The translations under genes and the position numbers were made by a program. From a virus (Duplodnaviria > Caudoviricetes), in the IMG/VR virus record IMGVR_UViG_3300028832_000114, positions 1 through 64,000 of that record: a stretch of 64,000 nucleotides of DNA; one strand, written 5' to 3'. A model generated the notes under the pieces. It searched no databases. It had not been told where the DNA came from and saw only the letters and a program-made list of their open reading frames with translations. This document shows positions 3,815 to 23,472 of the stretch, piece by piece (position 1 is the stretch's first letter; each line of letters begins with the position of its first letter).

Positions 3815-4741
3815 AATTTTTCACTCTCCTTTTCCTAATATTTCTTATAAATAAGATAACTAAATGGTGTCTTTCTTTTTGTAAACACCACCTAGAATAA
3901 ATATATTATCAGTTTACATTTATTCTAGGTGCTATCTACAAAGAGATAGCATATATGAAACCTAAAACGTTCCACGCATTTACAGCTACTAAGTAGCACA
4001 CGTTCCACGCAATTACATAGATTTCTTAGTGGACTTATTGCCGTAGTTTTTTAAAGAGAACCTCCTGTTTAAGCATTACCCTGTTCACCAGTGGGTTTCA
4101 CAAACTCTTTTTAACACTGCTATTATGCAAGCAGCACTGCTGTTCTTTATTTATACTCGCAGCCCCTAACGAGTTATTAATTATTTATTTATTTATTACA
4201 TAATAATTATATAATATTTTTTATAAATAATCAATAGTAGTTATTTTTTACTCAACTTATAGTCTTTCAACTGGAACCAACAGACCTTAAATTATTTTGT
4301 AAATATTTCTTTTCTTATTTACATATTAATTATATAATATTTTTTAATAATAATCAATTTAAGTAGTTTTTATCAGGTTCTCCTAAAGCCGTGACCCTGC
4401 GGGATAAACTATAACCAACTAAACACTCTACGACACCCGTATAGACCTGTCGCCGCCTGGGAAATTTTGATTGGCGTTCCCGCTATAACGCAAGGATTAG
4501 CTAACGCGGGTATTCCCTACCATATATATTTTAACTCAAAGGGTATTTCAACCTCCGCACAGTATTAATATTTTACTGGACTTACACCAGTGCACGACTT
4601 TATTTTTGAGTTGCCATATGCGGCGGTGGTAGCCATTTCCACTCCTTAGGTTAGTTCTACGCCTCTAACGACCAATTTCTATAAATATGTTTTATTTATT
4701 TATTACATTATAATTATATAATAATTTTTAATAATAATCAA

Positions 4742-11468: not shown

Positions 11469-12324
11469 ATATAGAAAGGTCTATTATGCACCCGACCAAA
11501 AGGCTGGTTTCATGTTGCTTTTTTTATGGGGTTGGAACATCACCACCGCAGTCTCCCCAATAATATACTAGAGGCTGCACGAAACGAATACACATTTAAT
11601 CTATAATTCCTATAGAACCTTTTCCTAGTAATTGTATAATTAATTGATTGAAATGTCCCTTGATAAAAAAAGTAATTTCGATGTTCCTCACATTAAGAAT
11701 GATATAAGTAAACTTCGGTCATTAGCGAATAAAGAGCCTCATATGGGGAGCTACCCCATAATCTTCTTTATCCGAAGCAGATGCTTCCAAAACTAAACAA
11801 GGTCAATACTTGCTACTTTCACGGGCGATAGGCAATTTTCCAAATATTTATCTTTTTCATAAAACCATCGCACGGTTTGAAACTAAACAGTAAATGTGTA
11901 GATTTCCGCTACTCGCACTACTATCCATTTTTATATCGTGTTACCACGACTCAACTACACAATGACTTATTGGTCTTAATATGGTTTCAACCTATAGCCA
12001 CCACAGCTATCAGTTCCATACCTTACACACCCACAGGGCTGTCAGAATTGTCAACAATAGGATAGTATACCTTATCTAAATATATTCATCCCCACCACAA
12101 TCCTCTTTTTTGTGCTATTAACACATCTGGCGGCAATCGTTACCTTTTGCTGCATCTCCGTCCATTTAAAGTTTTCACTCTAAACCTTGAAGTTGAGGCA
12201 TCGTGTCCATCCCTAGAAGTCTGTCTAGGTTTTTCATATGGTTCAAAATTATTTTTTTTATCAAAGAACATTTCGTAATCATTAATTACATACTTATTAT
12301 ATAAAAAATTTTTAAAACTTTCAA

Positions 12325-13569: not shown

Positions 13570-13988
13570 TGGTGGAGATGACGGGACTCGAACCCGTGTC
13601 CAAAAACAACTACTAATCACAAATCTCATTCTTACCTTACAAGTTTTGTGCATACCGTTCTATCTATACTCTTTACCATATGCAAATCTCAAGAGTAAGT
13701 CTATGCTAAAAGTAAACATTAAGTGCGGCTGGCATAGATAGCTGACACCTTAATGGCGGTCTTTGTTAGTTAATACGATTATATTTTTCTCTGTCCGCTA
13801 CTGATACTTCATATAAAAGCTACTTAGTCTTACGCAAAGGCTACGCAATTAGATGCGAATAAAGATTTAACTTTATTAGTAATTTTTGATAAAATGTTTC
13901 CATTTAATTTTTTATGTGCTATTTAACGCATAACTACGACTTGTATTGTGATGGTTCGCTTGCTCCTGTCGAAACCAGAAACATCCCC
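13570..13988 (-). ncRNA. ssrA: tmRNA; tag (A)GNILSKITNKVKSLFASNCVAFA* at 13830-13901
   Basis: 5' GGGGATG..GGTTTCGAC, G3:U70, 3' T arm and CCA, resume codon after TAAAT. Confidence 0.93.
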
Positions 13989-15358: not shown

Positions 15359-15434
15359 TGGTGACGCCGCCGGGATTCGAACCCGGGAATGTCAGGATGA
15401 AAACCTGATGTGTTGACCGCTTCACCACGGCGCC
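15359..15434 (-). tRNA. tRNA-Glu(TTC)
   Basis: Canonical cloverleaf. Confidence 0.95.
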
Positions 15435-15442
15435 ATATACAA

Positions 15443-15611
15443 AAGATTAGTTAGGACTCACACCTAAATTTTTGCACTCCACGTGCAATGTACTGGACAT
15501 TATATAGACTTCTGCAGTGCCTCATATAATGGACTAGCAGACTTACACACCCATAGGCTCTGTTAGATTTTGGGCCCGCCTAGGTTCTGTATCATCTTAT
15601 ACTACTAATCT
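15443..15611 (-). ncRNA. tRNA-shaped RNA with about 105-nt structured insertion
   Basis: Acceptor AGATTAG/CTAATCT, anticodon-like arm TTGCA-CGTGGAG-TGCAA, T arm TTAGG-TGTGAGT-CCTAA. Confidence 0.55.
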
Positions 15612-15659
15612 CTCATTTGATTACATATATATTATATTATATTTTTTAATAAAAATCAA

Positions 15660-16293: not shown

Positions 16294-16370
16294 TGGCGCC
16301 CCCTCAGGGATTCGAACCCCGGACACACGCCTTAGAAGGGCGTTGCTCTATCCTACTGAGCTAAGAGGGC
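16294..16370 (-). tRNA. tRNA-Arg(TCT)
   Basis: Canonical cloverleaf. Confidence 0.95.
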
Positions 16371-21570: not shown

Positions 21571-21854
21571 TTCCTTATATAAATATTATATAATATTTTT
21601 ATAAAAAAGTAAAATATATATAAAAAATGGCGGTTCATTGAGTAATCCTATGTCTTAGGTCAAGTAGAGTTTCTCCAAAGATTACATCTCGTTACCAAAA
21701 TTGCACTTTCGTTTTAAAATCTTGATATGCGGTTACCCTGCATATGACTTGATTGCCACTTAGTACACACTTCAAACTCAATAAACATCGGTCTAGAAGT
21801 TTTCCTTAACAATAATTTGCTATTAACTAGAATACCGTGCCATTTATTACTTAT

Positions 21855-22854: not shown

Positions 22855-23472
22855 TTCCTTTTTATATATTAATTATATAATATTTTTTAAAAATAATCAA
22901 TATATAAATTTTACTTCCATAATATTCTTCAAAAGTAGATAGACAATAGTAACAAAAAATGTCCTTTTTTTAGAATTATTTCAGCGGCGGCCGCCGATCC
23001 ATCAAATGTAAAATCTAAATTCTACAAATGACAGGCCAACTGCCGCCGCATATACAATTTAGGAAACCTCCTCACGTTCTGTTTTACAAATTACTTTACT
23101 GCATAAAGCAAATTATTTTTCTCAAAGAGCGACCTTGATACTTATTCACTCGCTTATCGGAGCAACTCGTTCTGCAGTGGAGTCTAACCTTTAGCAAGAG
23201 AAGATACTTAAATCTCCTTAGGTAATTTAACCGTAATGTATATTTTGGCAAGTTTCTTAAATAAGGGACTTAGGTTAAGATTTTACGAAACTTACAAATA
23301 TTATCTCTAGCCCCAACCAATATTGATATTGTTAATAATACTTAAAAAATAATTCAATAGTAAGTAAACCTATAAACTCTTTAGGAGCGTATCGCTTCCT
23401 CTTACTAAATCATTATTTTTCTTTTTCTTATTAACAAATATATTATACTATAAAATTTTTTAAAATACAATT

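Follow-up and report, generated by a model that had tools for sequence, protein, structure and literature searches.

Two RNAs of phage T4, RNAC and RNAD, have ends that resemble transfer RNA (tRNA) and are matured by the tRNA-processing machinery. They are also called species 1 and 2, are stable and lie within the T4 tRNA cluster, and their function is still unknown (PMC9697503). A second set of RNAs, ROOL, GOLLD and OLE, form homo-oligomers composed of RNA only and are found in phages beside tRNA islands, with kissing loops that are seen through palindrome covariation (PMC12286853). Here we describe a 169-nt element in a stretch of DNA from a Caudoviricetes virus of the cattle rumen (IMG/VR record IMGVR_UViG_3300028832_000114). 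The whole stretch, referred to as the window, is the first 64 kb of this 104-kb record (positions 1 to 64,000), and near-identical DNA occurs in the sequencing runs of about 16 bovine and goat gut studies. The element is nearest in kind to RNAC and RNAD and nearest in principle to ROOL and GOLLD; it belongs to none of them.

Like RNAC and RNAD, the element is a non-tRNA inside a phage tRNA cluster. It differs from them in keeping a full cloverleaf, with an extra domain in the D-loop, and blastn against GenBank phages, including T4, shows no sequence similarity. We know of no description of palindromic apical loops in RNAC or RNAD. Compared with ROOL, GOLLD and OLE, the element is three to five times smaller and is built on a tRNA cloverleaf, and its oligomerisation is proposed here from the comparison of homologues. 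Transfer-messenger RNA (tmRNA), YrlA, mascRNA and the herpesvirus TMERs are likewise non-decoding and reuse tRNA-like elements, either in processing or to bind proteins. In tmRNA a pseudoknotted mRNA-like domain replaces the D and anticodon arms and the molecule is charged with alanine, whereas the present element has neither a tag open reading frame (ORF) nor a CCA. mascRNA and the TMERs are simple cloverleaves serving as processing signals. A D-loop insertion made of two arms with palindromic loops is not known in any of these four, and their Rfam models do not match the element. In YrlA (Y-like RNA) the tRNA-like module is embedded in a Ro-binding stem (PMC4201824).

The element occupies the minus strand, from 15611 to 15443. 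RNA positions are numbered so that nt i corresponds to window position 15612 - i (nt 1 is 15611 and nt 169 is 15443). The tRNA-shaped shell is composed of the following parts.

15443-15611, minus strand: the whole tRNA-shaped RNA, 169 nt including the discriminator U at 15443 (covariance model).
15605-15611, minus strand: 5' strand of the acceptor stem, AGAUUAG (nt 1-7), paired with 15444-15450.
15444-15450, minus strand: 3' strand of the acceptor stem, CUAAUCU (nt 162-168), followed by U and no CCA, paired with 15605-15611.
15599-15602, minus strand: 5' strand of the D-stem, GUAU (nt 10-13), in long-range pairing with 15490-15493.
15490-15493, minus strand: 3' strand of the D-stem, GUAC (nt 119-122), in long-range pairing with 15599-15602.
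15472-15488, minus strand: anticodon-like arm UUGCAC-GUGGA-GUGCAA (nt 124-140), with a 6-bp stem in which five of the six pairs covary.
15451-15467, minus strand: T arm UUAGG-UGUGAGU-CCUAA (nt 145-161), invariant but for one compensatory pair.

Homologues were collected from several sources. Relatives of the phage were reached through the neighbouring RNA ligase, and blastn and nhmmer then gave diverged copies in two more lineages. A covariance model (R1) identified one further copy, in a complete phage of 136 kb. Ten loci came from a motif scan of JGI metagenomes, and four copies from ENA and Logan contigs with ligase homologues. The resulting family comprises 17 distinct sequences of about 150-170 nt from ruminant-gut phage contigs, with covariance-model scores of 113-178 bits (174.9 bits, full length, for the window element). 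Two subtypes can be distinguished: type A, the window's kind, in which the first arm of the insertion (H1) is 65 nt long, and type B, in which H1 is shorter. Between the window's genome (G000) and its sister record IMGVR_UViG_3300028797_000121 (G001), the element differs by one substitution and is 99% conserved, while both flanks have diverged.

Wider searches did not extend the family. About 95 more distant phage records, reached through RNA-ligase homologues, contain no full-length member; their best scores are those of ordinary tRNAs (25-37 bits, with tRNA-Arg(UCU) at the top). A strict pattern gave no homologue in 185,579 prokaryote species genomes. A relaxed pattern gave 54 loci in the same genomes, and none of the 23 scanned with a covariance model (R2) matched; one locus that was inspected (Prevotella, L184) is inside a protein-coding gene. 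With blastn (word size 11), 50,697 GenBank phage records returned only chance matches to the AT-rich promoter and to tRNA-Glu. A first-pass annotation, made from the sequence without database searches, had proposed an Infernal search of Rfam: this places the element outside every family, both at the gathering threshold and at E<=10. By default ARAGORN makes no call on the element, and at an 80% threshold it offers only a poor intron model; the element contains no ORF of more than 27 amino acids. By these comparisons the element is a real, conserved non-coding RNA, and its phage family, not described before, is absent from RNA databases.

The covariation analysis, also proposed in the first-pass annotation, reveals compensatory changes in all four cloverleaf stems and in the helices of the insertion. 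The 7-bp acceptor stem has such changes in two to four pairs. The D-stem is paired in 100% of cells, with two pairs changing on both sides, and reads GUAU/GUAC, GCUU/GAGC, GUUC/GAAC, GUUU/AAAC or GUGU/GCAU in different members. It encloses nt 14-118, that is, 105 nt at exactly 15598-15494, the segment that had been picked out as an insertion in the D-arm region. The other parts recognised at that stage (the 7-bp acceptor, U8/A9, the D-stem GUAU/GUAC, the anticodon-like arm and the T arm) are all present on the minus strand. A local hairpin, GUAU-AAGAUG-AUAC, is possible in the window copy and is not conserved in homologues.

In an alignment fitted to the model (A4), 96% of cells pair and 17 of 34 pairs change on both sides. 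In an unfitted MAFFT alignment (A8) the corresponding values are 99% and 20 of 47; for each alignment, none of 500 shuffles matched. The MAFFT alignments together give 17-20 double-changed pairs, and only 27-44% of cells are paired when the partners are slid by 1-3 columns (30-42% in the slid controls on A8). RNAalifold, supplied with the alignment only, returns the acceptor stem, the long-range D-stem, three helices in H1 (P-c, P-b and P-a), the second arm of the insertion (H2) and the anticodon-like and T arms. Since the G-U pairs (U13-G22 of the D-stem and others in H2) would read A-C on the opposite strand, selection acts on the minus-strand RNA. Shells from which the insert has been deleted in silico are recognised by ARAGORN as tRNA-Pro(UGG/CGG), in 6 of 15 copies by default and in 12 of 15 at a 90% threshold. 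The shell is therefore truly cloverleaf-like, even though decoding features are missing. Judged by its covariation, the RNA is a cloverleaf with the D-loop replaced by two arms.

The likeness to a canonical tRNA includes the 7-bp acceptor, U8, a 4-bp D-stem, a 17-nt anticodon arm, a 4-nt variable loop and a 5-bp T-stem with G53-C61 and U54/A58, as well as the position in a tRNA array. The differences are the 105-nt D-loop insertion, G33, a closed pentaloop, the T-loop UGUGAGU and the lack of G18G19 and of an encoded CCA. Read as a 7-nt loop, the anticodon-like arm is CGUGGAG, with the G at position 33 that had been pointed out in the first-pass annotation; one member has A33 and none has U33. 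The Watson-Crick closure C32-G38 is invariant. The pentaloop capped over this C-G pair (GUGGA at 15482-15478) is near-invariant in the family as G(U/C)GGA, with one GUGGGA and one AUGGA variant. Because the pentaloop is sealed in this way, the anticodon-like arm cannot read codons. In the T-loop, which sets the element apart from the phage's own tRNAs, G55 and U56 take the place of psi-C, and no member has a GG in the D region. The absence of CCA, reported earlier for the window copy, is borne out in all 17 members, compared with 22-25 of the 24-26 true tRNAs per genome that encode one in five phage genomes. The RF00005 covariance model gives no match to 15443-15611 at E<=10. On the strength of these features, the element is non-decoding and is not a tRNA. 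A search for a parent tRNA was unsuccessful: no tRNA of six phage genomes aligns well with the shell, and a 4-nt variable loop, by a crude estimate, is found in many tRNA types and not in tRNA-Glu alone.

The insertion consists of two arms, each with a self-complementary apical loop.

15532-15596, minus strand: arm H1 (nt 16-80), built of helices P-c, P-b and P-a, with a 19-nt loop at its apex and an asymmetric one internally.
15572-15577, minus strand: palindrome L1, GGGCCC, in the H1 apical loop (nt 35-40); it switches in homologues.
15498-15531, minus strand: arm H2 (nt 81-114), a 12-bp hairpin with the 9-nt apical loop ACUGCAGAA and five covarying pairs.
15512-15517, minus strand: palindrome L2, CUGCAG, in the H2 apical loop (nt 95-100); it switches in the L250/L251/L254 clade.

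In H1, P-a (UAGGC/GCCUA, extended by two C-G pairs) has three covarying pairs, P-b (CAGA/UCUG) has two and P-c (GAU/GUC) has one; the internal loop is of 9-10 nt, on the 3' side. The H2 stem is constant in length in the homologues inspected, except in the L250 clade (9 bp). Two helices had been proposed for the insert in the first-pass annotation. One, CATTATAT/ATATAATG, is H2 and stands; the other, CTAGGCGGGC/GTCTGCTAG, has to be replaced by P-a, P-b and P-c, which are those backed by covariation. The pattern of substitution indicates that the insertion itself is under structural selection, with its loops kept in a way unlike spacer.

The self-complementary apical loops, which had not been noted in the first-pass annotation, are in our view the main mechanistic clue. 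In type A, L1 forms the start of the H1 apical loop and reads GGGCCC (window), GUGCAC or GAGCUC, lengthened to 10 nt in some members; in type B it reads UCUCGAGA, UUCUCGAGAA or UCGCGA. L2 reads (A)CUGCAG(AA) in 14 members and (A)UUGCAA(U), AUUGCAAU, in the L250/L251/L254 clade, which was fetched via protein and not via the L2 motif. The inner pair of L1 is AU in seven column counts, GC in two and UA in two, and the outer pair of L2 is CG in nine and UA in two; every cell is paired in both cases. The bases of such a palindrome are too close in one chain to pair mutually, and the switching therefore points to pairing between copies. Switching between alternative palindromes is the evolutionary evidence used by Kretsch et al. 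for symmetric intermolecular kissing loops in OLE and GOLLD, and the argument has been structurally verified for OLE L9.3 and GOLLD L21a (PMC12286853). The same form of palindrome covariation is found in both L1 and L2. Copies of the RNA thus probably stick to one another via their loop tips. A familiar parallel is the HIV-1 dimerisation initiation site, a kissing hairpin with a 9-nt loop in which a 6-nt palindrome is flanked by unpaired A. The H2 loop, A-CUGCAG-AA, has the same design, although the likeness goes no further and the context is unrelated.

A number of other ideas concerning the loops and the insert were tried and rejected. Restriction-site avoidance does not explain the palindromes: CTGCAG is over-represented in these genomes, not avoided. 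The pentaloop UGGA is complementary to the UCCA that follows H2, but there is no covariation between them (L031 has UACA with CGGA). T-box-like pairing of the pentaloop with a tRNA 3' NCCA end fails because the discriminator does not track the loop. The triplets GAA and CAG in the H2 loop might be taken as 'codons' specifying Glu or Gln; any 8-mer has six triplets, however, the loop does not differ between Glu and Gln neighbours, and in the L250 clade, whose neighbour is Gln, it reads UUGCAAU. A twister-like motif (UAACAGAGCC...AAGUC) is not matched by the twister model and its helices do not fit. Finally, a module common with ROOL was considered on the basis of the 12-mer UGGGUGUGUAAG, found with similar flanks in the H1 internal loop (15542-15553) and in the ROOL RNA of the window (12022-12033, minus strand). 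Seven 12-mers are common to the element and the window, which is about chance level, and this one is not conserved in the family, where other members read GGCAAUGAAAG. As a separate observation, H2 together with the U-CCA that follows it (nt 115-118, in 15 of the 17 members; 15494-15531) is formally like an acceptor/T minihelix with an NCCA tail.

We interpret the element as a stable, non-decoding, tRNA-processed RNA that would form homo-oligomers via kissing loops, and give this reading a probability of about 0.55. The RNA would be transcribed with the tRNA operon, in this case from its own copy of the standard phage promoter, ahead of tRNA-Glu. The intact acceptor/T-arm stack would let RNase P and the 3' tRNA-processing enzymes excise it. 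The fold, as the covariation shows, is the cloverleaf with H1 and H2 in place of the D-loop and an anticodon arm sealed by G(U/C)GGA. As the palindrome switching suggests, symmetric loop-loop kissing pairs would form between copies via both arm tips. With two self-complementary loops per molecule, the products could be dimers, or closed or alternating higher oligomers, displaying tRNA-like bodies. The role is a guess: the assembly might bind or sequester a tRNA-recognising factor, or it might be structural, as the ornate ROOL and GOLLD may be. We also put forward, more tentatively and at somewhat less than even odds, a specific architecture: an RNA-only assembly of tRNA-shaped protomers in which two kissing loops extending from the tRNA elbow give dimers, rings or chains. 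The suggestion in the first-pass annotation of a non-coding RNA that uses a tRNA fold for processing and stability fits these data, given that the shell covaries, the decoding features are gone and the insertion is under structural selection.

Several points weigh against the homo-oligomer interpretation. The number of independent palindrome switches is small (about two to three for L1 in type A, one in type B and one for L2), and a 6-nt palindrome occurs in a shuffled loop with a probability of about 0.11-0.23 per sequence. The single-sequence fold of the element is of unremarkable stability (z = -1.3). Thin contigs from one metatranscriptome (X20) cover the two ends of the element, but they also cover the promoter and may be DNA carry-over; contigs from two other RNA libraries (X23 and X24) cover the multicopy promoter only, and the contigs show neither ends nor strand. 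In addition, the invariant T arm and pentaloop could reflect a protein partner without any oligomerisation.

This last point is central to the explanation that survives best among the alternatives, namely a monomeric tRNA mimic or, as had also been suggested in the first-pass annotation, a decoy that binds a tRNA-recognising protein (a host tRNA nuclease, a modification or processing enzyme, or a synthetase). Its palindromic loops would be sites for a dimeric protein, or incidental, and not RNA-RNA contacts. Near-invariance of the T arm and pentaloop while the stems covary is as expected for a recognition surface, and the RNA repair genes of the phage (RNA ligase, kinase-like AAA_33 and phosphoesterases) hint at conflict over tRNAs; a single palindrome, moreover, is not very improbable. 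Nevertheless, we consider a monomeric mimic unlikely. An anticodon loop so unlike that of a natural tRNA (G33, C-G closure) would be poor bait for an anticodon nuclease, and no partner protein co-occurs in the neighbourhood. Double substitutions, furthermore, keep the palindromes in both loops, which is predicted by RNA-RNA pairing and is unneeded for a monomer.

The genomic setting bears on a second alternative. Two features adjoin the element.

15631-15659, minus strand: sigma-70-like phage promoter TTGATT-17-TATAAT; nt 1 of the element lies about 10-20 nt downstream.
15359-15434, minus strand: neighbouring tRNA-Glu(UUC), 8 nt downstream of the element.

The promoter-like sequence seen directly upstream in the first-pass annotation is indeed present and is a repeated phage promoter. 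The window contains four copies of this box against 0 expected: 15631-15659, 4329-4357, 4713-4741, 22872-22900 (-). In related phages the box precedes protein genes and tRNA operons and is therefore a working phage promoter type. It is highly conserved over about 40 nt, with a conserved downstream ATATATATGTAA; many copies are present in G001, G003 and the rumen runs, and no other segment comes near its depth of coverage in metagenome contigs.

All 17 members are located 6-41 nt from tRNA-Glu(UUC) (11 members) or tRNA-Gln(UUG) (six members). Because the genes on the element's other side differ between members (Arg, Gly, Met, ORFs), this adjacency looks non-random. The element usually stands between the promoter and the tRNA; in the G007 clade (five distinct members) it comes 10 nt after tRNA-Glu. 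Two collinear contigs differ by the precise presence (L243:2219-2386) or absence (L252:2273-2330) of 168 nt between the promoter and tRNA-Gln, and in L240 tRNA-Arg(UCU) is found 82 nt from tRNA-Glu with no element. From this clean presence or absence in sister phages, the element is a discrete, dispensable cassette. Upstream, L243 and L252 have in common a conserved, structured segment of about 150 nt after tRNA-Met, which ends in the GC-rich hairpin GGCGGGAGG...CCUCCCCGC.

The element might, on this basis, be a cis-acting leader of the tRNA operon, controlling how the tRNA-Glu or tRNA-Gln behind it is transcribed, processed or stabilised. Most members do lie between the promoter and the first tRNA, which is always Glu or Gln at this distance of 6-41 nt. 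A leader is nevertheless improbable: the order is reversed in the G007 clade, in sister phages that lack the element the same promoter leads directly into tRNA-Gln, and the complete acceptor/T-arm module predicts release by RNase P.

Also improbable, and marginally more so, is an interrupted tRNA gene, formally tRNA-Pro (UGG/CGG), from which a 105-nt D-loop intron would be removed and the product resealed, with the phage RNA ligase as one candidate enzyme. A new intron type within a tRNA had been suggested in the first-pass annotation. The idea draws on the tRNA-Pro(UGG/CGG) calls made by ARAGORN for in-silico excised shells, on the variation of loop position 34 between U and C while G35 and G36 are fixed, and on an RNA ligase gene about 6 kb away. 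The excised product, however, would keep G33 (A33 once), the closed pentaloop with its 32-38 Watson-Crick closure, and G55-U56, with no G18G19 and no CCA, which leaves the suggestion unsupported; a normal tRNA-Pro(UGG) is also present in three of the four complete member genomes checked (G000, G037 and G007). Known group I introns are larger than 105 nt and, when in a tRNA, are normally in the anticodon loop. The present insert sits in the D-loop, matches no Intron_gpI or ribozyme family in Rfam at E<=10, and has loops and helices that are conserved like those of a functional domain. Finally, chance resemblance or a decaying tRNA pseudogene with a junk insert would suit the unremarkable single-sequence folding energy and the failure of tRNA finders to call the element, but has a negligible probability and is ruled out by compensatory changes in all helices and conserved loops across the 17 homologues, and by 99% conservation between G000 and G001 amid diverging flanks.

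The element forms part of a larger cluster. Between 11.4 and 22 kb the window carries, all on the minus strand, 24 tRNA genes, a tmRNA (model match at 13570-13988), a ROOL RNA and a partial OLE-like match. The ROOL and OLE covariance models thus match elsewhere in the window, and none of the ROOL, GOLLD and OLE models matches on the element. The ROOL RNA (11661-12265, minus strand) is full length, scores 174.5 bits and adjoins an initiator-like tRNA-Met. Of 38 related phage records, 15 contain ROOL, and G007 and G053 carry the element without it. The OLE match (21632-21835, minus strand) covers 204 nt of the 3' half (model 279-595), scores 107.5 bits against a cut-off of 50 and lies beside tRNA-Gly. 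A partial relative carried by a phage is unexpected, since extremophilic Firmicutes are the known source of OLE.

A 'missing tRNA-Arg' was also considered. The ARAGORN output includes no Arg tRNA for G000 or G001. The idea was rejected because members G053, G037 and G007 carry tRNA-Arg(UCU) too, and because the window's own Arg tRNA was found. This gene (16294-16370, minus strand) is labelled tRNA-Pyl(cta) by ARAGORN; its anticodon loop, CUUCUAA between ACGCC and GGCGU, is that of tRNA-Arg(UCU), and it is closely similar to the tRNA-Arg(tct) of G007. An Arg tRNA is therefore present in the phage, and nothing here speaks for a TAG suppressor.

Other tRNA-like sequences were encountered in related phages. 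A second, unrelated tRNA-shelled RNA of about 260 nt is located between tRNA-Asp and tRNA-Val in the sister record (G001 102070-102330, equivalent to L028:2070-2330, plus strand) and is absent at the same slot of the window's genome. It has the acceptor UUAAGUG/CACUUAA, a D-arm with GG followed by a large insert, an anticodon-like arm GGCGU-CCACGAA-ACGCC (ACG, C33), a T arm GUGAGG-UGCAAAU-CCUCAC (G55) and no CCA. Two tRNA-like sequences of 65-75 nt (L030:54-118 and L034:2801-2875, both minus strand) are not called by ARAGORN; their anticodon loop is reduced or of 5 nt, and their T-loop is unusual or of the G55 type. These are possibly insert-free relatives of the tRNA-shelled RNAs or an anticodon-less type of mini-tRNA.

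Phage tRNA clusters have been a source of stable RNAs of unknown role since T4 RNAC and RNAD and, lately, of giant self-assembling RNAs too. The family described here is small, has a covariation-backed fold and carries two loops with the signature of intermolecular pairing, which makes it tractable with a short in vitro transcript. It shows that default tRNA and Rfam annotation overlooks a recurrent class of tRNA-shelled genes, and that a tRNA D-loop tolerates a two-arm domain of 100 nt, a point of relevance to engineered tRNA scaffolds. The questions that it opens concern the tRNA scaffold as a carrier of quaternary-structure modules, the use of RNA self-assembly to a phage and the tRNA-binding target, if there is one. 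If the proposed assembly is correct, many tRNA bodies would be shown together, serving, for instance, to trap or organise a tRNA-binding factor while infection proceeds. The element would then be the first self-assembling tRNA mimic and, in principle, a relative of the ROOL and GOLLD cages that is small and tractable.

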